Below, piece by piece: positions 21,781 through 48,312 of a stretch of DNA of 64,000 nt (the stretch's first letter is position 1; each line of letters starts with the position of its first letter). This stretch comes from a virus (Duplodnaviria; Caudoviricetes). Position numbers and translations under genes: made by a program. The notes below the pieces were generated by a model, which saw nothing but the letters and a program-made list of their open reading frames with translations, ran no database searches and was not told the DNA's origin. The stretch spans positions 1,621 through 65,620 of the IMG/VR virus record IMGVR_UViG_3300033146_000601; one strand, written 5' to 3'.

Positions 21781-22058
21781 AAGAAATGTATTGTGAGGGA
21801 ACCACTCAGCGAAAGCTGAACCCTTCAGTACATTTTGATGGATGCCGTGTTACTTTTAAGGACACGGGGTATATTAAATTGATGAGAATAGATGTTGAAA
21901 TCTATTGTACGCTCAGAAAATTTGGTATATTATCAGAGTTGAGAAGCTATTCTCACGGTACGATGTAATTTATTACACGTATTCAAAGGTTGTATATTTG
22001 TCTGATCTCGGATTTTCCCAACGTTCGCGAACAGCGGCTAGTAAGGAATTTCTTGTTT
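21781..22058 (+). ncRNA. Candidate structured ncRNA 1 (~275 nt)
   Basis: GC-enriched; 5'/3' ends pair (AAGAAAT/ATTTCTT); stems TGTATTG/CAGTACA, TCAGC-GAAA-GCTGA, CCGTGTT/GACACGG, AATAGA/TCTATT, TGAGAA/TTCTCA, ATCAGA/TCTGAT; U-rich 3' tract. Confidence 0.65.
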
Positions 22059-22069
22059 GTTTCTTTTTT

Positions 22070-23362
22070 TTATTTTTTTGTTGCCGAATAAATAATAATA
22101 GCGGCATCATGCTCTAATGAATAATTAATAGATTGATTAACTGCTGATTTCCACTGACTTTTTGTTTGGCTTGGGTTTAATTGTTCATAAGCTTGTTTAA
22201 TACTTTCATTAGTTAATAATGAATATATTGCCATAGTATCACCATCGAAATCTGCACCACATCGAACACAATCTAATGGATTAATTCCCATAACACTATT
22301 AGTATCTTTAACAATAGGTTGGGCAGACATATAACTTTCACGATTTTCAACTGGATCTCGTTTATATAAAACTTGTTTTCCAACAAGAATTTCATTTAAT
22401 GATTCTATTAATTGTTCTTTAAACATCGCAGGAACACTTTCAGGTTCATCATATATCATCGAAATAAAATTAGTTATTGTTTTATTGGTTACATCATCAA
22501 CCCCCATAAAATCTTGAATTTGATCTAACATAGTTTTATGTTTAAATGCATAATGAATAAAAAAAGGTTCAAACAACTTTAACAATATATGCCAAGAAAT
22601 TCCAACTTCTCCTAAATTTAAATTCATATCTTGTGCAATTACTAATCGAGCACTAAAATCTAGTACTTTTTTCATAATCCCACCACGAATCATTCCATAT
22701 TTACCTTTAAGTAATTCTTTAATTTGTTTATTAATATTAATTAATAATTTTTGAGCATTTTCATATAATTCTTGTGTCAAATTGGGATCTAATAATTCAA
22801 CATCTGTTGGTAATATTTGAATATAATTGATAAGTCTAGTATATAAAACATTAATTTCAGAATATTGTATTTGTGTTTTATTTTCTTTAATTATAATATC
22901 ACGCAATCCAGCTGGCATTACAATATATTTAGTGATAAAAATCTTTGATTTATTATCTTTTAAATATTTAATATTTTTAATATTTTTATCACCAAAAGAA
23001 TCAAAATTAATCTTATCAAAATTTTGAATAAAAAAAACAATGCCAGATTCACCAGTTTCATCTTCTATTAATTCACCGGAATCAGTTATTGTATATTTGG
23101 TTTTGTTTAAAATTAATTTTGTTAATGATGGATGCACGGATAATGCGATTGGATAAGCTTCAGGATGTATAAATGGTAAATATAAATCAATATATCCAAA
23201 TGTAGATTTTCTATTACGACTACCTAATTGCCCGAAAATTGATTCTGAAAATAATCCTTTAGGGTCAAATTGTCTCGCACTTGTATAATATTTTGAACTT
23301 TCAACAGGGTTTATATTTTTATCAGTAATGAATCTATTAATATCCAATAATGTAAACTTCAA
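22070..23362 (-). CDS. RNA polymerase A, beta' N-terminal half (catalytic)
   Basis: GLFSESIFG, FGYIDL, VMPAGLR, KGKYGMIRGGIMKKVLDFSARLVI, KRDP, catalytic GADFDGD; TTG start. Confidence 0.92.
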   Translation of the reverse strand: MKFTLLDINRFITDKNINPVESSKYYTSARQFDPKGLFSESIFGQLGSRNRKSTFGYIDLYLPFIHPEAYPIALSVHPSLTKLILNKTKYTITDSGELIEDETGESGIVFFIQNFDKINFDSFGDKNIKNIKYLKDNKSKIFITKYIVMPAGLRDIIIKENKTQIQYSEINVLYTRLINYIQILPTDVELLDPNLTQELYENAQKLLININKQIKELLKGKYGMIRGGIMKKVLDFSARLVIAQDMNLNLGEVGISWHILLKLFEPFFIHYAFKHKTMLDQIQDFMGVDDVTNKTITNFISMIYDEPESVPAMFKEQLIESLNEILVGKQVLYKRDPVENRESYMSAQPIVKDTNSVMGINPLDCVRCGADFDGDTMAIYSLLTNESIKQAYEQLNPSQTKSQWKSAVNQSINYSLEHDAAIIIYSATKK

Positions 23363-23415
23363 TTGGAACCCCTTCCAATCGGAATCTAATTAAAGATTCC
23401 GATCAAATTATTTTT

Positions 23416-24333
23416 TTACTTGATGAATTTAATTAACCAACTCGTAAGTTTTGCCGTATAATCAAAAATTTCAATATCTTGACCACGTGTAACATTATAT
23501 TTTGGGTATTGCTTATTAAAATCAAATCGAACATCTTCAATATATAAATTAATATATCGTTGAATATCGCTTGTTTTTTTAATAATTCCATATTTATTAA
23601 ATATTTTATGTATCCTATCTTCAATTATAAATTTTGAATTATTATGTCTCCAATATGATACAATTGGACAATTTTTTGGAGGAGGGGTTATATCGTCTTG
23701 AACTTGTTTTGAATTAAATTTAGATTGTTTTTTCTTTAAAATTAAACGTTTTTTACCCAAATATAATTCACTATTATAAGGTTTAATAACACACCCGTAT
23801 ATTGGATTATGTTTAACTGAAATCACACTTGTATTTAATTTTTCAATATTATATTTTAAAGCATTAGTTAATGAAATATTATAATTAAAAATTGGAGCCA
23901 TTTTTAAATTAATTTCATGTAAAAATTGAATTAATTTCTTAGCTGGCATAAAATTATTATTTTCAAATACATCATGAATCATTAATGTATTTCGTCCATA
24001 TTTAACTTTGCGATTAATTGAATTTCCAATAAGAACTCCATATAAAATATAAATTGTATTTGTTGCAGTACTATGCTGTTTAATTAAATTAAACATATTC
24101 GAATTAATTATTGTTTGATAATTATGATATGGTTCATCATTTAATAAATATTTGTCTCTAGTACCATATAAAATTTCATTATTTGGAAAAATAGACACTT
24201 GGAAACTTCTTCCTAATAATTTTTCCATCATTATACATTTAATTGAATTACTATTATATCTATTATTAAATGCAGTAATAATATGATTATTTGTTGTTCG
24301 TTCAATATGATCGAATCTATAAAATTTATACAT
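23416..24333 (-). CDS. RNA ligase 2 (Rnl2)-like protein with degenerate motifs
   Basis: EKLLGRSF (motif I), YGVLIG (III), HDV (IIIa), YGCVIKP (IV), LKKKQSKF (V); likely start MYKFY. Confidence 0.7.
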   Translation of the reverse strand: MYKFYRFDHIERTTNNHIITAFNNRYNSNSIKCIMMEKLLGRSFQVSIFPNNEILYGTRDKYLLNDEPYHNYQTIINSNMFNLIKQHSTATNTIYILYGVLIGNSINRKVKYGRNTLMIHDVFENNNFMPAKKLIQFLHEINLKMAPIFNYNISLTNALKYNIEKLNTSVISVKHNPIYGCVIKPYNSELYLGKKRLILKKKQSKFNSKQVQDDITPPPKNCPIVSYWRHNNSKFIIEDRIHKIFNKYGIIKKTSDIQRYINLYIEDVRFDFNKQYPKYNVTRGQDIEIFDYTAKLTSWLIKFIK

Positions 24334-24352
24334 AATTTTTTCTTTCAATAAA

Positions 24353-25096
24353 TTATTTAGATATTTCTGAAGTATCTTTTTCAAAAACATCAACATGTAT
24401 TCTAGGAGAATATCGATATCCATAAGATTTGCAGAATTCAATTGTATCTAAACAATTGTGTTTATAATGTTTTTTAAAATTTTCTGAATTTAAAGATGGA
24501 GTCATTGGCATAAAAAATAATTTAGATTTATCTTCTATTGATAGACAAAAATTTATTATATCATTTTTATATTTTTCACAATAAATTAATTTATAAATAA
24601 AATTCACATGATAAAATGATAATTTTTCATATAATTCGTTATACATAAAAATTAATTTATTAATTGACATTTCATATTCACTAACATAACAATTAATATC
24701 TAATTTAGGAGATATATTTAATTGTATTTGTTTATTATCAGCTGAATCCAAAATAAATTTATTAGCAATATCGAATCCATTTGTTTCAAATTCAATAATA
24801 TCAAATATTGATTTAAAATTTGATATTAATAAGTTGATTAATTCTTGTTGAATAAATGGTTCCCCTCCAGTAATCATTAAATGTTTTATATTTGGATATT
24901 TATATAAATTTTCATATATCATTCGTTCAATATCTGCAAACTCATATTGATGATTTTTCTTTTGAGATATAGAATATTTAGAATCACAAAATGGACATTT
25001 TAAATTACAACCTTCGAATCGAATCAATAATGATGGGTGACCAACTAATGGCCCTTCTCCTTGAACAGTTGGAATTATTTGATTAATATAATACAT
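24353..25096 (-). CDS. queE: 7-carboxy-7-deazaguanine synthase (radical SAM)
   Basis: TVQGEG, IRFEGCNLKCPFCDS, ITGGEP, ETNG, SPK, YSPRIH. Confidence 0.93.
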   Translation of the reverse strand: MYYINQIIPTVQGEGPLVGHPSLLIRFEGCNLKCPFCDSKYSISQKKNHQYEFADIERMIYENLYKYPNIKHLMITGGEPFIQQELINLLISNFKSIFDIIEFETNGFDIANKFILDSADNKQIQLNISPKLDINCYVSEYEMSINKLIFMYNELYEKLSFYHVNFIYKLIYCEKYKNDIINFCLSIEDKSKLFFMPMTPSLNSENFKKHYKHNCLDTIEFCKSYGYRYSPRIHVDVFEKDTSEISK

Positions 25097-29734: not shown

Positions 29735-30700
29735 TTACTTTAAATAGTTTTTAGATCGTCTTAATTGTTCTTCAAATGATGTCATTTTATAATTCTGAAT
29801 AATAAGATCAATATTATCTTCAATAATTTTTGGTAAATTATCATAATGTTGAAGATCCACTATATCATATGGTAAATTATAATTTGAAATCAGATTAATT
29901 CCTTTGGCCGCACCAATACCTTTTAACCCAAATATTCCATCAGCTTTATCTCCCATTAATGATAATAATAATGGAATATATTCGGATGTTAATTGTCCAA
30001 TTTTAAATTTTTTATAAATATATTGGATAGCAGTATGAGTGTCAAATAATTCGATAGCCATTTGTTTTTTCCCAGATTGAGATGGAAAAAACCTATTTGT
30101 AACTTGCATAGTATTTTTAAATTTACAAGTTTGTAACAAATCTTTATCATTACTAATAATTATATTTAATGTACCAATTTTTGTACTATCAAATAAATTA
30201 TTCATAATAACATAATGTGGAATAAAATCTGCTTCCAACTGTTTTAAATAATATACTTGGTTTAATATTTTTAATGAATCTTTATTTAATAATTTTTCTA
30301 ATTCAATAAAATAATTAGTTTTAATTTTTTTAAACAGTTCCGATTCATCATCTTTTAAGAAATGAGAAAATGTTGATCTTCCTTGTTTATATGCAGATGA
30401 AATTGCTGTATTTTGTTCATTAATTCCATCATCAAAAAACGTTACAAAAAATGGTGAATATGGACGATAAATATTATATAATTTATTTAAATATGTTCGA
30501 TATTCATTAATTAATATATCAGATGGTTTTTGATTATTAATAAAATAATTAATTTCTGTAAATACATTATTCTTTTGATATAATCCTTTTGCAATAGATT
30601 GTAAATCTATATAAAAAATAATTTTATTAAGATTATATTTATTCAAAATAGTTTTTATTTGTGAATGAGGTATTGAACTCTTAATATAAATATTTGCCAT
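29735..30700 (-). CDS. 5'-3' exonuclease / flap endonuclease (T4 RNase H-like)
   Basis: IDLQS, FFDD, YKQGR, EADF, SNDKDLLQ, GDKADGIFGLKGIG. Confidence 0.9.
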   Translation of the reverse strand: MANIYIKSSIPHSQIKTILNKYNLNKIIFYIDLQSIAKGLYQKNNVFTEINYFINNQKPSDILINEYRTYLNKLYNIYRPYSPFFVTFFDDGINEQNTAISSAYKQGRSTFSHFLKDDESELFKKIKTNYFIELEKLLNKDSLKILNQVYYLKQLEADFIPHYVIMNNLFDSTKIGTLNIIISNDKDLLQTCKFKNTMQVTNRFFPSQSGKKQMAIELFDTHTAIQYIYKKFKIGQLTSEYIPLLLSLMGDKADGIFGLKGIGAAKGINLISNYNLPYDIVDLQHYDNLPKIIEDNIDLIIQNYKMTSFEEQLRRSKNYLK

Positions 30701-30733
30701 AAAAAATCCTTTAATAAAATTAATATATATTAT

Positions 30734-30803
30734 TATTATTTCTATATAAAATATTTAAATGTTAATTTTTTAAAATACCCATTAAAAATTAATTTCTATA
30801 TAA
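30734..30803 (-). promoter_or_regulatory. Two tandem phage promoter cores
   Basis: TTTCTATATA at ~30739 and ~30793, upstream of the 30700 start. Confidence 0.65.
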
Positions 30804-30825
30804 AATATGAAATTTAAAAAATACA

Positions 30826-32346
30826 TTAATATCCGGGTTCTTCATTCCCAGGTTTATTAGATAACCAAGTACCATCATGTTGACCAACTTCTGTAAATTT
30901 TGGATCACCTCGTTTACTTTGATCCCCAGCTGATGATTTAATAAGATGACTATCCTCAGATCCATCTGGATTAAAATCGGTAGGAACGGATTCTTCTTCA
31001 CATATAGTTGTTACATGATCTCCGGTACCTTCAATATCATCTGGAGTAGGATCATCTTGAATATAAGAAACTGGAGGAATGCGATATCTTAAAAATAATG
31101 TTTTATTAGAATGATATAAATATGGTTCGTTGTAATTTTCTCTAATAAATATATTCATAATATTTATTGGAGTATGTAAAAATTGATCTTCTAAATGTGG
31201 ATCTAGATTATAAATCTTTCCAAATTGAACAAAATCCGGAACACAATATGAAAATTCATAAAATGCAAATTCTTTAATTGCATCATCAAAAAATGTTCCC
31301 GCATTTTTATATCGTATAGTAGCATTTTCGTATGAATCAGAACAATATAGTCTAGTATCAGCAGAAGTAGTTGGATATGCCTGTGTCATTTCTAATCCAG
31401 GTTTAAAATAATTAACTGACCTTCCTTCTAATAGAGGTTCAGTTACCATTTGTCCTTGCATTTTATATGGCACAAATCCAGATGGTGCCCACCATTCTTG
31501 GCTATATCGACTATCTTTTTGATTAAATAATATTTTATCTATTGGATTTTTATTATATAAACATTTTTTAAAATCAGATATTGATACACTTTTATAAAAT
31601 GTATACATTGATGACATATCTGAATATTTATTAACATCAACTGAAACGAAGTTGGTTTTTGTTCCATAATTAATATAAGTATTAACTATTTCTTTAATTT
31701 TATCTGAACTAAATTCGAAAGGATCGAAAAAATAACTTGCAAATGAATGACTAAAATGATATTTATCTATAATATAAGCGGGAATATCTAAATCAGTTTC
31801 TGCTTTAGTTAATATATGTTCGTAATGAAATTCATTTATTTCATGAGCAGGACCAATCCAACGATATTGAAAAATATCTCCAAATGTATTGGTAATAAAA
31901 TCATGAAAATCTATCAATGTATCTTTAGCTCGTTTATTAGAAACGATTTTATTATAGGTGTTAAATTTCCCCATATAATATAATATTGGATGAACTAATA
32001 TTAAAGTACACACATTAGTTTGTTGATTAAATTTAGATGGATTATCTGGAAATACACCAATACATTGTAATACACAATCATATAATATTTTATCAAATAT
32101 ATCATCTCTATCCCCATGTTGTATTGAATGGATAGATAATCTCATTTTTGGAAAATAATTTTTAGTTACCATTGACAAAGCTTCAATAATAATTTTTTCA
32201 GGTAATATTAATTTAATTGAACAAAATGCTGAGGTTTTAGTTATATTTGCTTTAATAAATGCACAATATTGTACATCAATATAAGTCATATTATTATCTA
32301 ATAATACTAACACAATTTCATATCGTTGTAATTTAACTTCGGTCAT
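30826..32346 (-). CDS. Hypothetical protein, possibly baseplate hub-like
   Basis: 506-aa ORF with RBS AGGAG; functional guess is weak. Confidence 0.5.
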   Translation of the reverse strand: MTEVKLQRYEIVLVLLDNNMTYIDVQYCAFIKANITKTSAFCSIKLILPEKIIIEALSMVTKNYFPKMRLSIHSIQHGDRDDIFDKILYDCVLQCIGVFPDNPSKFNQQTNVCTLILVHPILYYMGKFNTYNKIVSNKRAKDTLIDFHDFITNTFGDIFQYRWIGPAHEINEFHYEHILTKAETDLDIPAYIIDKYHFSHSFASYFFDPFEFSSDKIKEIVNTYINYGTKTNFVSVDVNKYSDMSSMYTFYKSVSISDFKKCLYNKNPIDKILFNQKDSRYSQEWWAPSGFVPYKMQGQMVTEPLLEGRSVNYFKPGLEMTQAYPTTSADTRLYCSDSYENATIRYKNAGTFFDDAIKEFAFYEFSYCVPDFVQFGKIYNLDPHLEDQFLHTPINIMNIFIRENYNEPYLYHSNKTLFLRYRIPPVSYIQDDPTPDDIEGTGDHVTTICEEESVPTDFNPDGSEDSHLIKSSAGDQSKRGDPKFTEVGQHDGTWLSNKPGNEEPGY

Positions 32347-32361
32347 AAATTTCTCCTAATT

Positions 32362-34101: not shown

Positions 34102-34133
34102 ATTACTCCTTTTAAGTAGTAGTAAATTTAATA

Positions 34134-35906: not shown

Positions 35907-35916
35907 AAAAATTAAT

Positions 35917-35941: not shown

Positions 35942-35949
35942 ACTTTTAT

Positions 35950-37284: not shown

Positions 37285-37298
37285 AATTAAATTCCTTA

Positions 37299-38498
37299 TT
37301 ATATATTAATAATTTGTTTTTCTGTACTGAATAACCCACAAGCATCCAATGTAGTATCGGGCACTAATGAAATTATTTCGCCAGGATCTTGATTCGATAT
37401 AGTTGTTGTGCATGCTTTTCCAAATGAAGATGGATGTATATTACTAACTTCTGACGGGGGTCTTGTCATATTAGGAGTAATTAAACTAATTCGAGACAAT
37501 AATAATGGATATAAATTAGTAGTGTCATATAAAAAATTACCACTTAATCCTGAATTTGCTCCATTAGAAAGTTTGGCTGATGTTAAAAAATATTTAATAA
37601 TATTTAACTCATTTATATTTAATCTACTTTTTATTCCGCCTTTCGATGTGTCGATTGACAATGAAGTAATTTTATTAATATATGGTTTTAGAATAAACTC
37701 CAAAAATGTAACACGCTTAAATGAAAAATCTATAAAACTGACCGGTCCAGATAATGATAATTCAAAACTTTTTAATATAATTTGTTTTAAATTAATTTCT
37801 GGCAAATCAGGATAACATTGCCGATATATATTCTTTGTATAATCATCCAAAATTATCAATTCTAATTTTTCAATTATAGTTTTCAAATCTGGATCTGTAT
37901 TAAATTTAATACTAAATAAATGTGTTAAATCATCAATTGTGTAAATTTCTTGATCTAATTTATTAAAAGCACAAAAATCATTATATAATTTTACCTCATT
38001 TTCATTTTCTTCATCTATAAATAATTGTAAAAATGCAGTTAATGGAATATTCTGTCTAGTAATTATAACTAATCCTTGTTCAAAATAATATGTAATACTA
38101 TTAAATAATGTTGAAATAATTAAACTATTTTTTTTAACTGTTATTGGATAATCAATCAAATATAACCCTGGAACATAATAATTTCCATTTAAATAAAAGT
38201 AATTATCTTCAATTAAAGTAGGAACAAATAATGATAAAAACTCATCTTCTTCATTTGTTATATTATTTTTAACTGTTACACTAATTTTTGAAAACTTTGA
38301 ATTATACATTCCTGTATAATTTATTTTATCTTCAATTTTTTTATCAATTATTGTTAAATAATTATTTCTTAGACTAGAAACAAAATTAACACCATATTCA
38401 ATATAATTTAATATTTGGAAATATTCATATTTTCTAAATGATATCGGGTTAATATATTTGTAAAAATCTGAGGTTTTTCTAGACTGTAATAAATTCAT
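37299..38498 (-). CDS. RNA polymerase B, beta N-terminal part
   Basis: VPTLIEDNYFYLNG, FKRV, IHPSSFGKAC...DPGEI (bacterial VHP.HYGR.CP.ETPEG equivalent). Confidence 0.8.
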   Translation of the reverse strand: MNLLQSRKTSDFYKYINPISFRKYEYFQILNYIEYGVNFVSSLRNNYLTIIDKKIEDKINYTGMYNSKFSKISVTVKNNITNEEDEFLSLFVPTLIEDNYFYLNGNYYVPGLYLIDYPITVKKNSLIISTLFNSITYYFEQGLVIITRQNIPLTAFLQLFIDEENENEVKLYNDFCAFNKLDQEIYTIDDLTHLFSIKFNTDPDLKTIIEKLELIILDDYTKNIYRQCYPDLPEINLKQIILKSFELSLSGPVSFIDFSFKRVTFLEFILKPYINKITSLSIDTSKGGIKSRLNINELNIIKYFLTSAKLSNGANSGLSGNFLYDTTNLYPLLLSRISLITPNMTRPPSEVSNIHPSSFGKACTTTISNQDPGEIISLVPDTTLDACGLFSTEKQIINI

Positions 38499-38547
38499 AA
38501 AAAATCCTTTTTTTAAAAAAATTAAAATAAATAAATATTATTATTTA

Positions 38548-38574
38548 AATTATTTCTATATGAAATAGTTAAAT
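38548..38574 (-). promoter_or_regulatory. Phage promoter
   Basis: ATTT-N11-ATAGAAATAA upstream of beta-N. Confidence 0.6.
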
Positions 38575-38579
38575 AATAG

Positions 38580-38613
38580 AAGCCCATACTAATATAATTA
38601 TTAGTATGGGCTT
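38580..38613. terminator. Intrinsic terminator
   Basis: AAGCCCATACTAAT/ATTAGTATGGGCTT stem. Confidence 0.8.
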
Positions 38614-38616
38614 TTT

Positions 38617-40569
38617 TTAGTCGTCTAGAAATTCAATAAATACTGAAGCAACCCGTTTGGTACCTCCACTATGGTTTTTAATATCAGGCATATGATATTC
38701 TCCAGTGTCCATTAACTGTTCAATTAAATCTGTTTTTTCACTTACATAATCTGATTTAACTGTTAAAAGTTCTTTAAGAGCTATATCGCAACCGCTAGTA
38801 GCGATGGATTCAGTTTCCATTTGTCCAACGGTTTGACCTCCTTTTTTAGCTCGTCCTTTATAAGGTTGCCCAGTAATAAATTTATATTTTCCTAATGCCC
38901 TAGAATGTATAATTTTATCGGCAATTTTATTTAATTTCATAATATATGTAGGCCCGCATAAAATATTTTTTAATGTGACATCTCCATTAATTGTGAAATT
39001 TAATTTAAAATCTAATTTGTCTTTCATATATAATAATAATTCTTTTTTTAATATTATATCTTCTCTTGGAGGAATAGATGCCTTCATAATATTTTTAATA
39101 TCAATTTCTTTAAAAGCTGGCGCTTCTATAAATAAATTAGAATCGTTAATATTTTTAATTAATTTTTGTTTTTCATCTTCATCAGTTTGAATAGTTTTGA
39201 TTAAATCTTTTACTTGATTATAATATTCTTCATCATTCAAATTATAAATAATATCATTATTTAATTTAGTCAAATATTGATCAATATTATCTGGATCATT
39301 TTTAATTTTAGATTCAATCGACATTACATTTTTACTAACAATACATTCACTAATTTGGCTAATATTCATTCTACTATATACACCAAATGGATTAAAAATT
39401 AAATCCAATGGCAATTTAGTATCTTTGGTCATAGGTCGCAATTCATCTGGTAAAATTAAAGATGTTACCCCTTTGCCTGCATATCTATTACATAACTTAT
39501 CACCGAATTGACATATATTATCATCAACCAATTCAATTTCTAATATATATAATGCATGTTTCATTGTTTCATTATTAGAAGTGATATCATTAGATTGATA
39601 TACTAATTGTTCTTTTGCAACTTTAATTGCCAATTGTTCAGTAAATTCAGTTTTAATATCATTAAATGTTGTGAATATATCTTGATCACAATAAGCATCA
39701 TATAATATTTGTAATATTTTTTCTAATTGAGGATCAATCAAATTAATTGTTTTATTCAATTTATGTATTTTGATATTATTAACAACTGCATTTGACAACT
39801 TAGTTTTTGTATCATCAATTGTATAAGATGTTAACATAGAACTATCTGATAAATTAATCAAATCAATAATATTCATATTTTTTACAATAGATAATTTACG
39901 TTTAATACTTTTTGAAGATAAATTATTAGCTTGATTTGGTTTAATTTGACTACATACGATTTTATTTTTAATTTTATCACCAATATTAGGAAAATATATT
40001 AATTCCGAATCAAATATTTTTCTTAACACTGTATGTTCAAAAATAGGAATTAATATGTTTTCTCGTAATTGAGTTTTAGCTTTATTACTAAATAATTCAC
40101 TTATAACTAATGCATCTTCATGATTATAACCGAAAAAATTAAAATATCCAGTCATAGTATTATATCCAAATGAGGGAACACCATTTTTAAAATCATTATA
40201 TGAAAATATAATATCATGTTTTTTAAAATGAGTATCCTTAGGCAAAGATGTTCTTAATTTAGATGTAAAAATTCCAATAGTTTGTTTAAATATTGGAATA
40301 TATCTAACATTCAATTTATCTAATTTTATATAATGAAATATAATAATATTATTATCATTATAGAGTACTACACCATCATCTTCAGCAATTTGAATTGAAC
40401 GGTGGGCAGTATTAGTTAAATTTCTATAATTATTTGAAATTACATATGGTATATCTGCATTTTTATGAACAAGAGCTTGACCTAATTGTTTAGTAGCCAT
40501 GCCAGATCTTGTTGCATCACAACTTCCAATAAATGGTAAACTATTTAAATTGATACTTGATATTCCCAA
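38617..40569 (-). CDS. RNA polymerase B, beta C-terminal part
   Basis: LPFIGSCDATRSGM, GYNHEDALVISE, GDKLCNRYAGKG, DLIFNPFGVYSRMNISQ, HSRALG...GRAKKGGQTVGQME, LKELLTVKSD. Confidence 0.93.
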   Translation of the reverse strand: MGISSINLNSLPFIGSCDATRSGMATKQLGQALVHKNADIPYVISNNYRNLTNTAHRSIQIAEDDGVVLYNDNNIIIFHYIKLDKLNVRYIPIFKQTIGIFTSKLRTSLPKDTHFKKHDIIFSYNDFKNGVPSFGYNTMTGYFNFFGYNHEDALVISELFSNKAKTQLRENILIPIFEHTVLRKIFDSELIYFPNIGDKIKNKIVCSQIKPNQANNLSSKSIKRKLSIVKNMNIIDLINLSDSSMLTSYTIDDTKTKLSNAVVNNIKIHKLNKTINLIDPQLEKILQILYDAYCDQDIFTTFNDIKTEFTEQLAIKVAKEQLVYQSNDITSNNETMKHALYILEIELVDDNICQFGDKLCNRYAGKGVTSLILPDELRPMTKDTKLPLDLIFNPFGVYSRMNISQISECIVSKNVMSIESKIKNDPDNIDQYLTKLNNDIIYNLNDEEYYNQVKDLIKTIQTDEDEKQKLIKNINDSNLFIEAPAFKEIDIKNIMKASIPPREDIILKKELLLYMKDKLDFKLNFTINGDVTLKNILCGPTYIMKLNKIADKIIHSRALGKYKFITGQPYKGRAKKGGQTVGQMETESIATSGCDIALKELLTVKSDYVSEKTDLIEQLMDTGEYHMPDIKNHSGGTKRVASVFIEFLDD

Positions 40570-40573
40570 ATTA

Positions 40574-40909
40574 TTAGTCCTTTTCTTCTAATTTAATTAG
40601 TTTTGAACAAATAATTTCTGGCAATTTTATAATTTTATTTTGAGAATCAACCACTTCATGGTAATGTAATTTACCAATAATATATATTTTAGTACCAATT
40701 GCTAAAGATAATGCAAAAATAGCATGTTTTTTCCACAATTTTAAATTATGATATTCAGTTTGGGTCACCATTTTATTATGTTTTTTACTAAAATAAGTTT
40801 CATTAGTCGCTATTCGACATTTAACACCAATTGGGTCATTGTTAATTTTCATAGGATCCAGAACAATATACCCAACTAAAATTACTTTATTTTCACAAGT
40901 GTAATCCAT
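40574..40909 (-). CDS. ssb: OB-fold single-stranded DNA-binding protein lacking the acidic tail
   Basis: NKVILVG...DP, IATNE, TEYHN..LW, GTKIYIIGKL. Confidence 0.8.
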   Translation of the reverse strand: MDYTCENKVILVGYIVLDPMKINNDPIGVKCRIATNETYFSKKHNKMVTQTEYHNLKLWKKHAIFALSLAIGTKIYIIGKLHYHEVVDSQNKIIKLPEIICSKLIKLEEKD

Positions 40910-40933
40910 AAAAAACCTTTTTAAGTTATATGA

Positions 40934-43900
40934 TTATAATTTATCTAACCAAATCTTTTCATATAATGTTAATTTTGTTCCAGTATTATCTGTTAAATAT
41001 GGTAATGATTTTATATTTGGTTGAAATAAACAACTTAATCTTGGACGTATATTATATGCCATATTAAGTTGTCCAGATTTATAAACTATTTTATTATTTT
41101 GATTATATCTCCAAAATACATTTGGGTCTTTATTAGTTAAAAACATATTAGCAAATATACATTCAACAAATGATGAAAATAATGTCCCAACTTCTAATAA
41201 ATATGACATAAGTTCTTCATAATATTCAGTCGGATGCTTGTTAATTATAGTTTGAGTTTTTAATATTTGTTTAATATGTACAAGAATAGCAATAACATCA
41301 TTATTTTCAACAGGATATTTAATTTCATCAAAAACAATTACATTATCATGGCATAACAAAAACCCTTCAATCCCATCAAAAATATTTACTGGATTACTAT
41401 CAAAATATAATTCACATTTACCATTAATGTTTTTAATATTTATTAAATGATCATGAATAAATTGTTTAACATTTTCATCAATATCTAAATTTGCTGCACC
41501 TGAAGTATGAAAAGTTCGCATAACTAATTGTGTTAATCGTTCTGATACTAATTGACCAGCCATAATCCCAACATAATTGGTTCGAAGCGATCTAGCACCA
41601 AAACATTTTTTACAAATTTGAAAATTTTGGGTTTGACATGTAATTGGTGATCTTATTGATATTTTTTTATTTATATATGTTTTGGCAGTATTAAAATCTA
41701 ATATTTTCCAATTACGATCATTTGAATAAATATCTCTATAATATTTACCAGTTAATGTTTTAGCATGTGTTTTACTAAACACAATAGTATCAATATGCAA
41801 ATCAGTTCCACAATCATTTTCAATAATTTCCAATGGGGATAATGCCATTGATAAAGTTCGTTGCATATATCCAGATTCAGGTGTTGATTTACTTTTATCA
41901 ACAACTCCTTTTCTAGCTCCCAAACTTGTTTCAAGAAAATCTGCTTGATTTAATCCTTTAATTAAATTTGATGTTATTGGTTTATTTGATACAATATTTT
42001 GTGCGTCGGCAATATATCCAATATTCATACATGTTCTAGCTAATTGAGATTTACTAAATCGTGATCCAGATTTAAATAATTTATATAAATCACAATCTTT
42101 ATTCATTTCTGTTAAACACTTATCAATTAATGCTTCATTAATATGTGTCCCAATATATGGATTATTTTTAGGTAAATTCATAAATAAATGTTCTATTTTA
42201 TCATTTAACATATTTATCATTTCATTAACATTAATTGATGGACAATGATCAGTACTACTGATAAAAAATAATATTTGTCTGTTTAAATTGTGTAAATTAT
42301 CATGAAATTTATCTTGATTGAATTCAAATATTATTTTACTAACTAATTCAGATTCAGATTTACCAATAAATTGATTAATTAATATTGAATCGAACCCAGC
42401 CCATTTATTAATCAAACACATCCCATATGAATATGTTTTATTAATAAAGTTAACTGGACAATCCAAATTATAATTCCAATAATCAAAATTTTCAGGTAAT
42501 AAGTCCAAAGATGTTAATTGAATTGGAACTTTATCATAATTAATATTAAATGAACTTATTATAAACATTCCATATAATGCTTCATGTCGAAGTGTAGCTA
42601 ACATTGTTTCATTAGAATCATATTTAAACTTATATTTCAAATATGATTTATCATGCATTTCTTTTAATGCTGATTGATCCGCAATTGCAAATAATGCTAA
42701 TGTATCCCCATCTAAATCAGCATTCATTGGAGCCAATGTTAATGGAGATATTCCAATTGTTAAATCATTTTTATCCTTATTAGGTAAAACTTGAACTGTT
42801 GGAATACTATGTGAATATAATGTAGGGGCTCTATTTAAAAACATCAATCGTTTTAATTCATATTTATCTTGACAAAACCACACCAAAAATTCTTGAAATA
42901 ATCTTTCATTTTCTTCATTTTTAATACCTTCTAATAAAATTTTATTAAAGCAATATGTATAATCATAATCTTTATATTTAGTTAACCAATACACAAAGTA
43001 TGGCCCCCATAATTCTTTTAATATATCATGAGGTGCCGTAATTTGATAACAGTTTAAACTTGGATCAATTTTAATAACTGATCTGGCTGAAAACTCTACT
43101 GATTTTCCTAAAATATTTTTCCTAATTATTCCAGGTTTGCCTGATAATAATTTATATACTTCTGCATAAATATTATTAATTTGTTCTTGATACGCACAAG
43201 ATTTAATATCATATTCAAAAAATTCGGATTCAACAATTGCCTGAGTTAATTGACCAGATTTAATCGTTATTCGAATTTTTTCAATAATTTGCGGTTCAAT
43301 TTCATGTAAATAATCTGCGAATGGTAAATTAATTTTATTACAATTTAATACTGATTTATAATATTTATTAATTATTGGAAATCGTTTTTTATTTTGATCA
43401 ATATCAATTGTAAACATTCGTGCATTTGGGGGTAATACTTTAAGTGATTTAGTAAAAATATTATCTGTAATTAATTCAGTAGCAATAGGGACATTTAAAT
43501 GTTTATGTAAAAATGTTAATCCTAAAAATAAAGTATATATTCCAGTAATTCTAAATGGGATTACTAAATATCCTTGTTCAGAATTTAATGTTTTTACAAT
43601 TTTAAGTTTAGTTTTATCATATTTTACAGCTAAATATCGTTTATTGATAATATTAACATCAGATTTTTTTGGGTCAATTATTAATTTGCATAATTGACCC
43701 AAATATTTAATAACCAATTTTTGTTTAGTTGTCTTAATATATGGAAATATAGTTTGAATTTCTCCAAATTGTGTAAACCTAAGGTCACTAGACCCACATA
43801 AAACATTACATTTTGGACAAATTTGGTTATCAAAATTAATACTATTATATTTTCCACATAAACATTGATGATCTCGTATTGGCCCAAAAATCACTTGTGA

Positions 43901-43987
43901 AAATAATCCATCTTGTGTTTCTCTATTAATTTGTGTTTTTCCTTGAAAATCTTTAGCATTGGTTACTAATCCACCAAGATGTGACAT
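40934..43987 (-). CDS. RNA polymerase B, beta' subunit (unsplit, compact)
   Basis: DGLFSQVIFGP..D..CLCGKY...CPKC, GKPGIIRKNILGKSVEFSARSVI, LNRAPTLY, NADLDGD, GARKGVVDK...TPESGYMQR, RSPITC...CKKCFG, TQLVMRTFH. Confidence 0.95.
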   Translation of the reverse strand: MSHLGGLVTNAKDFQGKTQINRETQDGLFSQVIFGPIRDHQCLCGKYNSINFDNQICPKCNVLCGSSDLRFTQFGEIQTIFPYIKTTKQKLVIKYLGQLCKLIIDPKKSDVNIINKRYLAVKYDKTKLKIVKTLNSEQGYLVIPFRITGIYTLFLGLTFLHKHLNVPIATELITDNIFTKSLKVLPPNARMFTIDIDQNKKRFPIINKYYKSVLNCNKINLPFADYLHEIEPQIIEKIRITIKSGQLTQAIVESEFFEYDIKSCAYQEQINNIYAEVYKLLSGKPGIIRKNILGKSVEFSARSVIKIDPSLNCYQITAPHDILKELWGPYFVYWLTKYKDYDYTYCFNKILLEGIKNEENERLFQEFLVWFCQDKYELKRLMFLNRAPTLYSHSIPTVQVLPNKDKNDLTIGISPLTLAPMNADLDGDTLALFAIADQSALKEMHDKSYLKYKFKYDSNETMLATLRHEALYGMFIISSFNINYDKVPIQLTSLDLLPENFDYWNYNLDCPVNFINKTYSYGMCLINKWAGFDSILINQFIGKSESELVSKIIFEFNQDKFHDNLHNLNRQILFFISSTDHCPSINVNEMINMLNDKIEHLFMNLPKNNPYIGTHINEALIDKCLTEMNKDCDLYKLFKSGSRFSKSQLARTCMNIGYIADAQNIVSNKPITSNLIKGLNQADFLETSLGARKGVVDKSKSTPESGYMQRTLSMALSPLEIIENDCGTDLHIDTIVFSKTHAKTLTGKYYRDIYSNDRNWKILDFNTAKTYINKKISIRSPITCQTQNFQICKKCFGARSLRTNYVGIMAGQLVSERLTQLVMRTFHTSGAANLDIDENVKQFIHDHLINIKNINGKCELYFDSNPVNIFDGIEGFLLCHDNVIVFDEIKYPVENNDVIAILVHIKQILKTQTIINKHPTEYYEELMSYLLEVGTLFSSFVECIFANMFLTNKDPNVFWRYNQNNKIVYKSGQLNMAYNIRPRLSCLFQPNIKSLPYLTDNTGTKLTLYEKIWLDKL

Positions 43988-44006
43988 TATAAATCCTTTT
44001 CAAATA

Positions 44007-44444
44007 TTAATTATCGGATTCTAAAATATTAAGTATTTCATTAGTTGCCATTTTATAATTAGTTTGGACTTTAGTATTTTCAACAATTAATGCTGATACA
44101 TTAGTTAAATTAGTTTTTTTAACGGGATTACATTTTTTTTCATGTTTATCTGTAAATTCATGTTTAGCATGTATTGCCAGATTATTTACTATGTAATTAT
44201 CATTTTTAATTCTATTCATAAATGAGACAGAGTGTTTAAATTTAAATCTCATAGTATCATGTCCTAACCGACTAGAAAATATTTTAAAAGCTATAAATTT
44301 TCCAAATCCTCGAATAGGACATGATCCTACAAAACAACTTTTTTGGATTATCATGTTAAATAAATCATGAATTAAATTAACAATATCAACATTTGGATAT
44401 TTTTTCATTAAATCATGCTCTATATCTGGTGGAAGTTTAAACAT
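44007..44444 (-). CDS. HU/IHF-like DNA-binding protein
   Basis: IRGFGKF...RFKFKHS.SF pattern. Confidence 0.6.
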   Translation of the reverse strand: MFKLPPDIEHDLMKKYPNVDIVNLIHDLFNMIIQKSCFVGSCPIRGFGKFIAFKIFSSRLGHDTMRFKFKHSVSFMNRIKNDNYIVNNLAIHAKHEFTDKHEKKCNPVKKTNLTNVSALIVENTKVQTNYKMATNEILNILESDN

Positions 44445-44474
44445 AATTAGTCCTTTGATTGTTTTTGAATATAA

Positions 44475-44945
44475 TTACCAAACTACACACAGACGTTGTT
44501 TATCTTTAATTAAAATATTATGCTTTAAAGCCATAATTGACGCAATGCCATTTTTAATATATCTAATATCAATGTTATCTGACATATCTGAAAACATTTT
44601 TATATTATCATAATCATCACTATTTATATCAGTATTAACTGGAATAAAATAAAATCTATTTTGCAACAATCTAATTTCTTGATTAATAGCAATAACTTTA
44701 TCTTTATGATTAGTCGCAGTAATAATACAATTAATTGGAGTTACATTTTTTTCAAAATTTATTAATATGTGATGTTTATTAATTTTTTTTTCAGAACATT
44801 CACATTTTGATTTTGATTTTTCATTAACAATTAATGTTTCTTTAATTTTAATCGGTTCAGTGTTTGGTTCCATATTTACCTCAATTTTTGTTTCAGATTC
44901 TACATCTTTAGCTACAAATGGATCTTCCAGATCATAATCAGCCAT
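44475..44945 (-). CDS. Hypothetical protein
   Basis: 156 aa, RBS AAAGGA, first gene after the 45008 promoter. Confidence 0.65.
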   Translation of the reverse strand: MADYDLEDPFVAKDVESETKIEVNMEPNTEPIKIKETLIVNEKSKSKCECSEKKINKHHILINFEKNVTPINCIITATNHKDKVIAINQEIRLLQNRFYFIPVNTDINSDDYDNIKMFSDMSDNIDIRYIKNGIASIMALKHNILIKDKQRLCVVW

Positions 44946-45007
44946 AAATAATTCCTTTGTTTAATAAATAAAAATAATTTAAAAAATAAAAAATTCCATC
45001 TTATAAA

Positions 45008-45224
45008 TATAATTTCTATATATATTATGAAATTTGAAATGTTCTTCCATATCATACATAAGTACAATATGGAAGAATTGAGATATTAATACCCAGTGGC
45101 AATAAATATCTCTATGGTTTCATCTTCAGTCATGTTTTTCTCCTTTTATTTAATTAAAAATTAAACATTTATACTAATATAAATGTTTTCATATATTAAT
45201 TATTTCTATATGAAAATGGAGAAT
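45008..45224 (-). promoter_or_regulatory. Two phage promoters upstream of the RNAP-B operon
   Basis: Cores at 45008-45022 and 45198-45211; the second has ATTC at N11. Confidence 0.65.
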
Positions 45225-45356
45225 TATTTTTCAATAATAGTATAAATTTTAGACAATTCTTTTATAATATCCTTAACATGTTGTTCTAATATACTTCTTC
45301 TTATTCGTTTTTCTTTTTGAATTTTTAATAACAAATCTACTATTAAATCTACTAAT

Positions 45357-45623
45357 TTATGATTTGTCTTCATGAGTGTCCCCAGTTCGAGTATTCCAAT
45401 TGTAAATGGCCTGGTTTATAGATTTTGACAAAGGGCCACTAGATTTGCAATTATCGCAATAACACCGATATCGAATAACATTTAACAAATTATATGGAGA
45501 ATATTGTTTTATTTTAATAACTAATCGATTACAAAATGGACATTGGAGTTTAGAAATGTTTTCCGAATCTACACTATCCTGACTAGTAAAAATATCAAAT
45601 AAACTACTATTATTTGTTTTCAT
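45357..45623 (-). CDS. Lar-family (restriction alleviation-like) Zn-finger protein
   Basis: CPFC...CDNCKSSGP...AIYNWNTR. Confidence 0.65.
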   Translation of the reverse strand: MKTNNSSLFDIFTSQDSVDSENISKLQCPFCNRLVIKIKQYSPYNLLNVIRYRCYCDNCKSSGPLSKSINQAIYNWNTRTGDTHEDKS

Positions 45624-45633
45624 AAAAATTCTC

Positions 45634-45846
45634 CTATCTGCGATTTTGTCGTTTTGATTTTTTTATTTGTTTTTTCTTTTTCTTTTTTTCTAACTTTTGT
45701 TTGTATTTTAATTTAGATTTCATCAATAACAATTTCTGTTTTTTCTTATTTTTAATTTCCATTTTTCGTCGAGTATCTTCAATTTCTTTCCAATTAGAAT
45801 TGAATGAAAAATTAGGATTTGCAATATCTAATATACCAGGTTGCAT
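45634..45846 (-). CDS. Small lysine-rich protein
   Basis: 70 aa, RBS AAGGA. Confidence 0.55.
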   Translation of the reverse strand: MQPGILDIANPNFSFNSNWKEIEDTRRKMEIKNKKKQKLLLMKSKLKYKQKLEKKKKKKQIKKSKRQNRR

Positions 45847-45862
45847 AATAAATTTCCTTTAA

Positions 45863-46462
45863 TTATAAAGTTTCACTTTGATTAAATAACTCATCGTTAT
45901 TTAATATATATGCAGTATTTATAGATTTATTAAATGGTAAACAAGGTTTTAATGACAAATATAATAATTCAATATCTTTTTTTATTTGAAATATTGTGTA
46001 ATGTTTTCGAATTAAATCTAAATTAATATACATATATAACCGAATATTATGATATACATTATAATTTAATTCATTATTTATAATATCACAAGTAAAATAA
46101 ATTTCCGAAATAAAATTAAATTTTTTATAAAATTCTAAAACATATTTGCTATTTGCAATAATTTTTATTTTTGGATTTAATATAACTAACCCAAAGTTTG
46201 AATTAATTACAGGAATATTAGATAAATCTATATTATCACTAGCTTTTAAAATTATATTTGAATTATTTGAAATTATTTCATTTGAATTAATTGACGGGCA
46301 TATACAAATAATATTTTTTGATTTATCAATATCGTGATATAATAATGATGAAAATTCAGAAGATTCAATTATCATTATGTTTTTATCCTTTCTTTCATCA
46401 ATTAAAAAATATGTTAAATTATCATTTAATAATTGTTGAATATTAATCCGTTCAAACAACAT
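45863..46462 (-). CDS. Hypothetical protein
   Basis: 199-aa ORF, RBS GAGG. Confidence 0.6.
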   Translation of the reverse strand: MLFERINIQQLLNDNLTYFLIDERKDKNIMIIESSEFSSLLYHDIDKSKNIICICPSINSNEIISNNSNIILKASDNIDLSNIPVINSNFGLVILNPKIKIIANSKYVLEFYKKFNFISEIYFTCDIINNELNYNVYHNIRLYMYINLDLIRKHYTIFQIKKDIELLYLSLKPCLPFNKSINTAYILNNDELFNQSETL

Positions 46463-46585
46463 AATTTAGAACCTCTTTTAAATTTCTAACATTGTTTTTA
46501 TAAAAATTGATGCTGGCACTTTTTTATAATATTTAATAGATTTTTTAATATACTGAATTAATTCAGTTTCCATTTTAGTTCTCCT

Positions 46586-47380
46586 TTAAAGTGATGATAA
46601 TGAACAATATGCATCATGTTGGTGAATAGATTCTTCATTACTTACTAAAACTTTATACCAATTTACTTTATCTTTAATTGTATGAGTTAAATCATCAAAT
46701 AATTCTCTAACCATATCTTCAACAAATTTAGGATTCTCATATGCTTGTTCAGTAACAAATTTTTCATCAACCCGTTTTAACACACTGTATATTGGGCAAC
46801 TTGCATTTCTTTCAGAAATTTCAATCAAATCTTCAATATAAATAAATTCAAAATCTTTAATTTGACATTGAATTTTTATTTTTGATCTTTGATTGTGAGC
46901 CCCATATTTACTTATTTCTTTAGAACATGGACATAAACTAGTTGCTGTAGTTTCAATAGTCATTATAAAACATGAAGTATTCCCATTTGAATTTGTAACA
47001 TCAAATGTAACATTATAATAAACTATTCCGATTTCTTCTGAAACCGGTGCAGATTTATTAATAAAATATGGAAATTTATATATTATCTGACATCGATCTG
47101 CTTCTGAAATGTTTTTAATATTTTCAGCAATATCATTAATTTTTTTAAGACTTAATTTGGTTGATAATTGTTTTTGTAATTGCTGAGGCAATCTAGACAT
47201 GTGTATACCTTTTTGATTACCAGCTAAATCTACAAACACATCAATGTCTGCAACAGTATGTTGATCTTCATTATTGTTTTTTTTAACAATAAAAATAGGT
47301 AATTTTAAATTTCTAATACCAACCGTTTTAATTGGAATATTTAATTTGGATGATCCATTTTGGATGTCTAACATTAACAT
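46586..47380 (-). CDS. folE2: GTP cyclohydrolase IB
   Basis: LDIQ, VGIRNLKLP, KGIHMSR, SLCPCSKEISKYGAHNQRS, LKRVDEK.VTE.AYENPKFVEDMVR, EESIHQHDAY. Confidence 0.95.
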   Translation of the reverse strand: MLMLDIQNGSSKLNIPIKTVGIRNLKLPIFIVKKNNNEDQHTVADIDVFVDLAGNQKGIHMSRLPQQLQKQLSTKLSLKKINDIAENIKNISEADRCQIIYKFPYFINKSAPVSEEIGIVYYNVTFDVTNSNGNTSCFIMTIETTATSLCPCSKEISKYGAHNQRSKIKIQCQIKDFEFIYIEDLIEISERNASCPIYSVLKRVDEKFVTEQAYENPKFVEDMVRELFDDLTHTIKDKVNWYKVLVSNEESIHQHDAYCSLSSL

Positions 47381-47577
47381 TTCCTCTTTTTTTTCTTAGT
47401 TATATAAATGTTATTAATCGCACTTCGAAACCGCAAATAAGTATGATGTTGTATTAACTGCGGGTAATTAGTATCAAATTCTGAACATACTCGACCACAT
47501 AAATATTTGCAAAAATTCGCATATTCTTCTGGGTAATGATAGTTTAATATTTCTAAATCAATATTGTCTTGATACAT
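47374..47577 (-). CDS. Hypothetical protein
   Basis: 67 aa, RBS GGAG. Confidence 0.55.
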   Translation of the reverse strand: MYQDNIDLEILNYHYPEEYANFCKYLCGRVCSEFDTNYPQLIQHHTYLRFRSAINNIYITKKKKRKC

Positions 47578-47610
47578 AAATTACTCCATTAAAATAATAT
47601 AAGTAAATAA

Positions 47611-47651
47611 AAAAAATCTCTCGTAGAGACGAGATTTTTTAGCAAGTAGCT
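47611..47651 (-). terminator. Terminator, copy 1 of a duplicated ~40-bp unit
   Basis: AAAAAATCTCTCGTAGAGACGAGATTTTTTAGCAAG(T/C)AGCT, also at 48089-48130. Confidence 0.75.
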
Positions 47652-48030
47652 ATAATTCCTTTAATCCTTGAACTACATGCAATGCCAAGTGCATGTATTC
47701 TTTAAGTTGTTTTGAAGGCACCTCTTCGTTTATGGCTTGCAATGTATCACATCCTGAACATGATCCATATAATATTTTTACAGTCCAATAATCAGTTGGT
47801 TGATAGCCTTTTTCAGCTATCACATATACTAACGACCCCTGATAATCTCCGTCATCTATTTCATGAATTCGACGCGGATCAGGATTATGATCACCATATT
47901 CATCATCATCAGTAATAGTCTCAATGATCATCTTAACCAATGAGTTATAATTTGCAACCCCCTCTTTTGTAATTTTTTTTTCTAATTTATGTTTATTTTC
48001 CATGAACCGATCAATAAATAATTGAATCAT
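47650..48030 (-). CDS. Hypothetical protein
   Basis: 126 aa, DGDYQG...YGSCSGCD motif, RBS AAGGAG, own promoter core at 48074-48088. Confidence 0.75.
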   Translation of the reverse strand: MIQLFIDRFMENKHKLEKKITKEGVANYNSLVKMIIETITDDDEYGDHNPDPRRIHEIDDGDYQGSLVYVIAEKGYQPTDYWTVKILYGSCSGCDTLQAINEEVPSKQLKEYMHLALHVVQGLKEL

Positions 48031-48088
48031 AAAAATTCTCCTTTTAAAAAATAATAAAACTATCCATTGGTCTTATAAGTTTCTATAT

Positions 48089-48130
48089 AAAAAAATCTCT
48101 CGTAGAGACGAGATTTTTTAGCAAGCAGCT
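48089..48130 (-). terminator. Terminator, copy 2
   Basis: Near-identical to 47611-47651. Confidence 0.75.
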
Positions 48131-48312
48131 CTTACGTTTGAATTTTACGTCGGGTTTTAGCTGCTACCAACCGACGGAATGTCTTTTGAGACGTTACTCT
48201 CTAAGGGATTCAATCCTTAAATTTTGTTGGGTTTATTCCCAATGCATTTTTAACCAACTATTACGTTGTTGGCAGGCTTATATGCATAAACCTTTTGATA
48301 CGCTTGAAATCT
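48122..48312 (-). ncRNA. Candidate structured ncRNA 3 (~190 nt) with a 3' pseudoknot
   Basis: Minus strand: ATGCAT/ATGCAT enclosing CCAAC-aACGTAAta-GTTGG; TTGGG-AATAAA-CCCAA; TAAGG/CCTTA; GTCT-CAAA-AGAC; CGTCGG/CCGACG whose loop AGCAGCT pairs with downstream AGCTGCT. Confidence 0.6.

Follow-up and report, generated by a model that had tools for sequence, protein, structure and literature searches.

Do the strongly folded RNAs encoded between the genes of a large phage belong to one family, and what could such RNAs do for the phage? This question is raised by a 64,000-nucleotide (nt) stretch of viral DNA (Duplodnaviria; Caudoviricetes; positions 1,621 to 65,620 of the IMG/VR virus record IMGVR_UViG_3300033146_000601), referred to here as the window. 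A first-pass annotation had proposed three RNAs, RNA1, RNA2 and RNA3, as one family of early-expressed RNAs, perhaps protein decoys. We find that RNA2 and RNA3 are related copies of one structured module, conserved with compensatory changes, which follows the stop codons of the genes P0001 and P0002. RNA1 is outside the module family. As the best explanation, to which we give about an even chance, we propose that the module is a cis-acting 3'-tail element that stabilises hyper-structured early mRNAs and probably offers a protein-binding surface.

The window comprises nearly all of the 65,620-base record. This record was judged 24% complete, and its genes include pieces of a split multisubunit RNA polymerase as well as a DNA ligase and an exonuclease; the window is therefore a piece of a very large phage genome. 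Its G+C content is 25.2%, and the RNA1, RNA2 and RNA3 regions are its most G+C-rich gaps (0.31-0.36).

RNA2 and RNA3 carry one structured module

In RNA2 and RNA3 the same elements appear in the same order within ~75 nt: the stop codon, the motif CGURY..AAA.RGUU (motif A), the 5' strand of a helix P1, the word UAAGCYU, a hairpin P2 with a CGUAA loop and the 3' strand of P1. The RNA2 module (35485-35557, + strand), supported by the minimum free energy (MFE) fold from RNAfold, the covariance models R1 and R2 described below and pair counts, starts at the stop codon TAG. It consists of motif A CGUGCAAAGAGUU (35500-35512), helix P1 CAUAGUU/AACUAUG (35513-35519 with 35547-35553), UAAGCUU (35519-35525) and the P2 hairpin AUGACU/AGUCAU (35526-35543) with its loop ACGUAA (35532-35537), all on the + strand. 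On the - strand, the RNA3 module (48313-48239) comes after the stop codon TAA (48315-48313) and consists of motif A CGUAUCAAAAGGUU (48302-48289), P1 AUGCAU/AUGCAU (48287-48282 with 48247-48242), UAAGCCU (48280-48274) and P2 GCCAAC/GUUGGU with loop AACGUAAUA (48273-48253). The motif strings quoted at first pass were indeed present, CGTATTCAAAGGTT at 21978 (+) in RNA1, CGTGCAAAGAGTT at 35500 (+) and CGTATCAAAAGGTT at 48302-48289 (-), as was TAAGCYT followed by ACGTAA in RNA2 (35519, 35532) and RNA3 (48280, 48266). A regular expression written afterwards to cover all three motifs matched just those three sites on both window strands. Because the unpaired motifs are kept while the helix sequences differ between RNA2 and RNA3, it is the structure that appears conserved.

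A covariance model was built from RNA2 alone (R1), and the window was searched with it on both strands (128 kb) without filters. The RNA3 module ranked first among the 23 non-self matches (24 rows at an expectation value E<=10, including RNA2), with 14.5 bits and a window-wide E of 0.39. This alignment covered the full length, kept in register from the stop codon onwards and formed standard pairs in both P1 and P2. When the search was limited to the 285-nt RNA3 gap, which had been chosen independently by its folding, E was 0.0017.

The first-pass annotation had proposed a covariance model search for further homologs, and a third copy was found in this way. The P0001 alignment retrieved 18 IMG/VR loci, and R1 was run on 16 P0001-homolog loci (69,743 bases). 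The sole match at E<=5 (10.7 bits; E 0.02 within 403 nt) lies in L100, another large AT-rich phage contig, directly 3' of the stop codon of the P0001 ortholog. L100 and L101 are the closest P0001-homolog loci (51% identity); these two contigs of 183 and 201 kb are identical at the module site. The L100 module consists of AAACGUGCUAAAUGGUU, P1 UAUAAAGU/ACUUUAUA, GUAGCCAU and P2 CCAAU/AUUGG with loop CGCGUAAGA. Across RNA2, RNA3 and L100 the unpaired words are alike (UAAGCUU/UAAGCCU/GUAGCCA; loops ACGUAA/AACGUAAUA/CGCGUAAGA) and the stems differ, which can also be seen in the raw sequences. In a three-sequence alignment, which was fitted to the model and hence leans towards structure, 92.3% of the 39 pair cells pair and 8 of the 13 pairs change on both sides; none of 500 shuffles equalled these counts, and slid registers paired at 30-38%. 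A covariance model of all three sequences (R2), run on the whole window without filters, placed only RNA2 and RNA3 below E 0.7. The pattern of structure conservation noticed at first pass is thus borne out for RNA2 and RNA3, by the R1 match and by the compensatory changes in L100.

Could two tails that are rich in hairpins and enriched in GC share short words by chance, given the AT-rich genome around them? A plain local alignment of RNA2 and RNA3 would fit this explanation, since 482 of 500 dinucleotide shuffles reach the observed score, and so would the window-wide E of 0.39. Comparison with shuffled controls therefore had a divided outcome: plain alignment stays at shuffle level, whereas structure-scored pairing beats all 500 shuffles. 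Hairpins with ARUAAA-type loops (22) and AGATTYCAA sites (18) are also common at 25% GC. The latter word, AGATT(T)CAA, had been listed as a shared start of RNA2 and RNA3; it is there, but it has 18 window occurrences and is missing from the third homolog. Against coincidence stands the fact that a model made from RNA2 alone aligns in register at the stop codons of RNA3 and of the L100 ortholog, and that pairing reaches 92% versus 30-38% in slid controls. We therefore regard chance similarity as highly improbable.

MAFFT gave no meaningful alignment of full-length RNA2 and RNA3, and the 70-100 nt that separate the module from the terminator are neither conserved nor alignable among RNA2, RNA3 and L100. 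A further helix, P0, between the stop-codon region and ARRGUU was unsupported by L100 and was dropped from R2. Pseudoknot partners for UAAGCYU were sought by eye, and the candidates disagreed among the three members.

RNA1 is not a member

RNA1 (21781-22069, +) is a separate, strongly folded RNA (z -4.82) of ~290 nt. It lies between the gene for an RNA polymerase beta' piece and that for a helicase and has an exact copy of the promoter motif to itself, at 21762-21778 (+). It contains the linear motif CGUAUUCAAAGGUU at 21978-21991 (+), which fits CGURY..AAA.RGUU. The gap holds no TAAGCYT and no ACGTAA, and 3' of the motif there is no CGUAA-loop hairpin or enclosing helix. On 21724-22069 (346 nt) R2 reached 4.6 bits (E 0.77) and skipped 40 model positions, the P1/P2 core; the whole-window match lists of R1 and R2 contain nothing at the RNA1 motif site. 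Local alignment scores were reached by 153 of 500 dinucleotide shuffles for RNA1-RNA3 and by 290 of 500 for RNA1-RNA2. RNA1 is thus outside the module family and shares only the linear 14-mer. Of the family proposed at first pass, the RNA2/RNA3 pair stands, as R1 and L100 show, and RNA1 drops out. A single family of three early decoy RNAs would account for the common 13-14-nt motif and the common promoter control, but RNA1 lacks P1, P2, UAAGCYU and the CGUAA loop and aligns with RNA3 at chance level; we consider this proposal almost certainly wrong.

RNA1 deserves study of its own. The word GGTATATTA occurs twice within it, and its 17-nt word CAGAAAATTTGGTATAT recurs at several places in the phage records G001 and G002, where a blastn search for RNA1 relatives returned just AT-rich words of 14-23 nt. 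Homologs of the RNA polymerase beta' piece at 80 loci, fetched in the search for RNA1 relatives, had identities of 22-32%.

The module opens the predicted 3' tails of two heavily folded transcripts

RNA2 and RNA3 had been annotated as separate non-coding RNAs. This view was given up in favour of one in which both form the 3' ends of mRNAs whose entire length is hyper-structured. A promoter-like word specific to the phage, A(G/T)ATAGAAATTATAT, is enriched, with 21 matches in the window (<=3 mismatches) compared to 10.25 +/- 3.4 in shuffles. It lies before P0001/RNA2 with one mismatch to AGATAGAAATTATATWA (34935-34951, +) and in exact form before P0002/RNA3 (48648-48632, -) and at 48987-48971 (-). 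With the exact copy at 21762 (+), all three candidate RNAs are therefore downstream of the phage promoter, in agreement with the first-pass annotation.

P0001 (34954-35487, +; 177 amino acids (aa)) begins with an ATG directly after the promoter motif, without a Shine-Dalgarno sequence. The structured 3' tail of its mRNA, the whole of RNA2 (35488-35690, +), folds with -52.6 kcal/mol (z -4.09; RNAfold), and none of 200 shuffles is as stable. A hairpin scan placed a hairpin with an AGUAAA loop at 35623-35642 (+), and a terminator scan an intrinsic-terminator-like hairpin with a T-run at 35651-35675 (+). In the MFE fold of RNA2 a long-range pairing, UCAGGUU/GAACCUGA, closes a larger domain containing the terminator. 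The tail of the P0002 mRNA (P0002, 48313-48603, -; 96 aa) is RNA3 (48312-48085, -), with -57.4 kcal/mol, z -4.25 and one of 200 shuffles as stable. Here, a hairpin with an AAUAAA loop (48242-48227, -) is followed by further hairpins and by a terminator hairpin with a T-run (48113-48098, -; terminator scan). Hairpins with A(G/A)TAAA loops had been noted at first pass and are present in both tails. In L100 the module is followed by a hairpin, AUAAAAG and a terminator. A possible pseudoknot in RNA3, spotted by eye, would interleave CGUCGG/CCGACG with GCAGCU/AGCUGC.

The coding regions are themselves strongly folded. The first 334 nt of the P0001 coding RNA have z -9.83 and the last 200 nt z -3.52; the P0002 coding sequence has z -10.09 and ranks first among the 66 open reading frame (ORF) calls in the window (median -0.78). 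For both coding RNAs the sense strand folds more stably than the antisense strand, by 19-26 kcal/mol, and this speaks for selection at the level of RNA. The G+C content of both coding sequences is ~0.43-0.45 compared to 0.25 for the genome. In the P0001 RNA an inserted KVFSK-coding stretch pairs near-perfectly with a YFEKTL-coding stretch, giving a hairpin of ~20 base pairs. Homologous P0001 genes are strongly folded in 6 of 6 loci picked (z -4.8 to -8.75), and P0001-family mRNAs in 7 of 7 cases checked; P0002 homologs have z<=-3 in 3 of 11. At the P0001 loci z<=-3 was found in 22/68 downstream segments, 25/68 coding-sequence ends, 18/56 upstream controls and 11/54 far-downstream controls. Special folding just after P0001 genes was considered and is not claimed, because the flanking sequence is also often folded. 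Two more window ORFs of ordinary G+C content are folded, 44007-44444 (-) with z -5.0 and 53205-53390 (-) with z -4.4.

These results show the homology, the conserved structure and the position of the module, and they exclude RNA1; what the module does is our inference. RNA2 and RNA3 would be a paralogous element that opens the 3' untranslated tails of the mRNAs of P0001 and the Csx3-like P0002 and is followed by the ARUAAA-loop hairpin and the intrinsic terminator. Acting in cis within unusually heavily folded early transcripts, the element would provide a defined, nuclease-resistant 3' domain, its conserved loops would be the probable recognition site of a protein, and through it these early mRNAs, which likely serve counter-defence, would stay stable and expressed. 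In favour of this, each of the tails ends in a terminator-like hairpin with a T-run, the transcripts start at the promoter motif, and the coding parts stand far outside the usual range of folding in the window.

Several observations weigh against a cis-acting stabiliser. The module members are three distinct sequences from two phage lineages, the window-wide E values of the single-sequence model, 0.39 and 3.5, are not significant alone, and the pair counts and plain alignment have the weaknesses described above. R2 gave best rows of E 9.5 and 9.7 at 20 more distant P0001/P0002 homolog loci and no match at E<=10 at 80 metagenome P0001 loci, the latter with default filters, which can lose weak matches. 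The 71-aa ORF of a third early cassette (48714-48929, -) has a plain terminator alone. The same results are also compatible with two alternatives, a trans-acting RNA and a regulated terminator.

The layout of the tails bears on the last of these alternatives, according to which read-through into the downstream genes P0004 or P0003 is set by the module in response to a ligand, to a protein or to the ribosome that completes the upstream ORF. P0004 is a 57-aa ORF behind RNA2 (35733-35906, +), and P0003, a phrog_12588 protein, is encoded behind RNA3 (48030-47650, -). A structured domain, a terminator, a Shine-Dalgarno sequence and an ORF follow each other as such regulation would require. A ribosome that terminates at the stop codon would cover motif A, because the module begins no more than ~12 nt from this codon. 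The RNA2 terminator lies inside the larger UCAGGUU/GAACCUGA-closed domain, which would allow alternative folds; this long-range pairing is seen in the MFE fold of RNA2 alone. However, the downstream genes differ (57-aa ORF, phrog_12588 protein and, in L100, a 302-aa protein), no Rfam riboswitch matches, and the 70-100 nt from module to terminator are not conserved. The RNA3 terminator is followed by an ATAGAAA core as part of a 42-nt unit of terminator hairpin and promoter-like core, which is present after RNA3 (48121-48080, -) and again after the next gene, P0003 (47651-47610, -), with 98% identity. This repetition suggests that each early gene is its own small transcription unit. A regulated terminator thus appears quite improbable to us.

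In L100 a second structured stretch (L100:2776-2935) comes after the terminator of the RNA, with a CACGUAAA-loop hairpin just before the Shine-Dalgarno sequence of the 302-aa ORF. This ORF contains an NFDHHGEG motif and looks DHH-phosphoesterase-like by eye.

Proteins encoded upstream of the module

P0001 belongs to a widespread family with 473 cluster representatives at E<=1e-3 and has no Pfam or PHROG match. Its structure was predicted with a mean local confidence (pLDDT) of 96.5, and Foldseek gave no match at E<=0.001. With VIA-align the best Z was 5.3; most of the weak matches (Z 3-5) were to small ribonuclease (RNase) toxins of the RelE, BrnT or CdiA-CT type. One language-model neighbour was an RNase-A-like CdiA-CT cluster (Atlas feature score 0.84, a score that counts as a lead only).

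P0002 has 195 homologs and no Pfam match. When its AlphaFold2 model (pLDDT 94.5) was compared to the PDB with Foldseek, the 11 best-ranked rows were all Csx3/Crn3, with probabilities of 0.87-0.99 and template modelling scores of 0.43-0.52; their E values were 0.03-0.09, none reaching E<=0.001. A profile search against PDB sequences gave an unrelated ABC transporter as best row (E 0.55). On this predicted Csx3/Crn3-like fold, P0002 is possibly a viral ring nuclease. For the first-pass suggestion that decoy RNAs may act with neighbouring counter-defence genes, this fold is the one result that bears on it.

The module is lineage-restricted

Matches to known RNA families were absent. The 4227 families of Rfam 15 gave no match in the whole window at gathering score, E-value scans of the RNA1, RNA2 and RNA3 regions (E<=10) gave sub-threshold rows alone, none of them credible, and ARAGORN found no tRNA or tmRNA genes. 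A megablast search of window positions 30000-50000 against cultured phages had no match. In tblastn searches against cultured phages P0001 and P0002 had none, and P0003 gave four matches in Clostridioides phages. Single-protein scans of IMG/VR with P0001 and P0002 returned no relatives, and no P0002 homolog was found in G001 or G002. The sequencing-run listing for the record shows three DNA runs of one study (best share 0.17) and no RNA run, and is silent on expression.

Searches for the module itself reached little further. The strict pattern CAAARRGTT..TAAGCYT..ACGTAA matched one stretch in IMG/VR, by chance in an apparent coding region. A looser DNA pattern matched 10 stretches, two of which are the L100/L101 contigs; the other eight form three groups, are GC-richer and coding-looking, lack P1/P2 and were rejected. 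In the phage records G000, G001 and G002, R2 found its training sites and one 15.7-bit match within an ORF-like stretch. The downstream regions of 11 P0002-homolog loci showed no module motifs. With three distinct sequences from two lineages, the module is real but narrow, and since the more distant P0001/P0002 homolog loci searched are without it, we conclude that it is lineage-restricted. Among the listings and abstract beginnings returned by a full-text literature search there was no publication on such an element.

Other P0001-family genes are followed by a different RNA family

Directly downstream of other P0001-family genes we found an RNA of ~130-190 nt with a pseudoknot and a three-way junction, which we call group B. 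A covariance model from nine sequences (R3; 130 positions, 26 pairs) matched 13 sites when 98 loci of P0001 homologs were searched at E<=0.01; every site is on the strand of the gene (L151:403-578, L159:2058-2233, L171:1871-2044, L147:971-1161 and nine others). Among 11 distinct sequences pairing holds in 90% of 310 cells, with compensatory changes in 24 of 30 pairs. There are six helices, one of them a pseudoknot; none of 500 shuffles equalled the counts, and slid controls paired at 36-43%. The conserved words are GYACAG, UAUAAAUA, CUAAC and GGACAGCC, and a further hairpin, with UCAAGUCA as its loop, comes after the RNA. Neither gathering-score nor lenient Rfam scans gave a row on group B sites.

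In the window R3 had 11 matches at E<=10, the best at 8666-8726 (14.0 bits, E 0.14), and none in RNA1, RNA2 or RNA3. The window module and group B are therefore different families by this test. They are alike in lying on the same strand directly 3' of a P0001-family gene, and in having, near the stop codon, a hairpin enclosed by an outer helix and then another hairpin whose loop is A-rich (..GAGUAAA in group B). They differ in their conserved sequences, and the pseudoknot and three-way junction are found in group B. At least three other recurring downstream RNA types were seen at P0001 loci (L143/L163/L164; L141/L146; L187/L190/L194), and one such type begins at the stop codon with UAGGAUAAACC. 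At L159:3430-3484 there is a match to the type III hammerhead ribozyme (46.4 bits against a Rfam gathering score of 48.5; E 1.2e-07).

These loci are the background for a trans-acting alternative, in which the tail or a processed piece of it is a functional RNA that binds a P0001-family or host protein, as a ribonucleoprotein or a decoy; the phage would then have a second client RNA in RNA3. Group B RNAs after P0001-family genes of other phages, on the same strand, would agree with this, as would the module after the P0001 ortholog in L100, the conserved loops, which are typical of protein contacts, and the resemblance of P0001 to RNase toxins in structure comparison and language-model neighbourhood. 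However, these fold and language-model signals are below the tools' own informative levels, and RNA3 follows an unrelated gene. At P0001 loci the flanks and the stretch just downstream of the gene are also folded to about the same degree, which makes a generally structured neighbourhood an alternative. A trans-acting RNA is, in our judgement, unlikely, and we prefer the cis-acting 3' element.

Proteins of the P0001 family, together with the elaborate RNAs whose genes follow theirs directly, could also constitute a widespread, undescribed phage protein-RNA system, a proposal that we regard as rather doubtful. In one version P0001 may act early as an RNase-like enzyme specific for single strands. 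The P0001 mRNA and selected early counter-defence mRNAs, such as that of the Csx3-like P0002, may then be shielded by their extreme folding and marked by the shared 3' module, which P0001 would recognise or spare. Within such a system the window module may be the lineage-specific form and group B the common form.

Comparison with known systems

Like the orphan RNA motifs of phages and metagenomes (the 'motif' class of Rfam), the module is a short multi-helix RNA with conserved loops and covarying stems. Unlike them it has three members, matches no Rfam 15 family and forms a 3' tail at a stop codon instead of a 5' leader. In type III toxin-antitoxin systems (ToxI/ToxN) a tandem-repeat RNA (~30-40 nt repeats) lies upstream of the toxin gene. 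There too, a structured RNA stands beside a small protein, here one with a possibly RNase-like fold, but in the window the RNA is downstream of the gene, and P0001 can be assigned to the RNases only weakly (Z<=5.3). None of 53 tandem-repeat rows from Tandem Repeats Finder overlaps 21724-22069, 35488-35732 or 48031-48312.

T4-type phages reportedly contain 'promoter-early stem-loop' (PeSL) cassettes between early genes, as Arbiol and colleagues are said to have described in 2010. Small early genes bounded by a stem-loop and a promoter-like core, as in the 42-nt unit, resemble such cassettes. This likeness covers the terminator/promoter repeats; the 75-nt module comes on top of them and has a more complex structure. 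Riboswitches and attenuators likewise have a structured domain, then an intrinsic terminator, then an ORF with a Shine-Dalgarno sequence. The module differs from them in being without a known aptamer, in its position directly after an ORF and in the unrelated downstream genes of the three cases.

Implications for giant phages

If the module is what we propose, an undescribed structured RNA element would tag two early giant-phage transcripts with a probable role in counter-defence. It also points to a large phage protein family (473 cluster representatives) with strongly folded mRNAs in all 7 cases checked and, at 13 of 98 loci, a strongly covarying, pseudoknotted RNA outside Rfam. Folding of coding sequences with z near -10 is rare and suggests selection on mRNA structure, for example against nucleases or RNA-guided defences.

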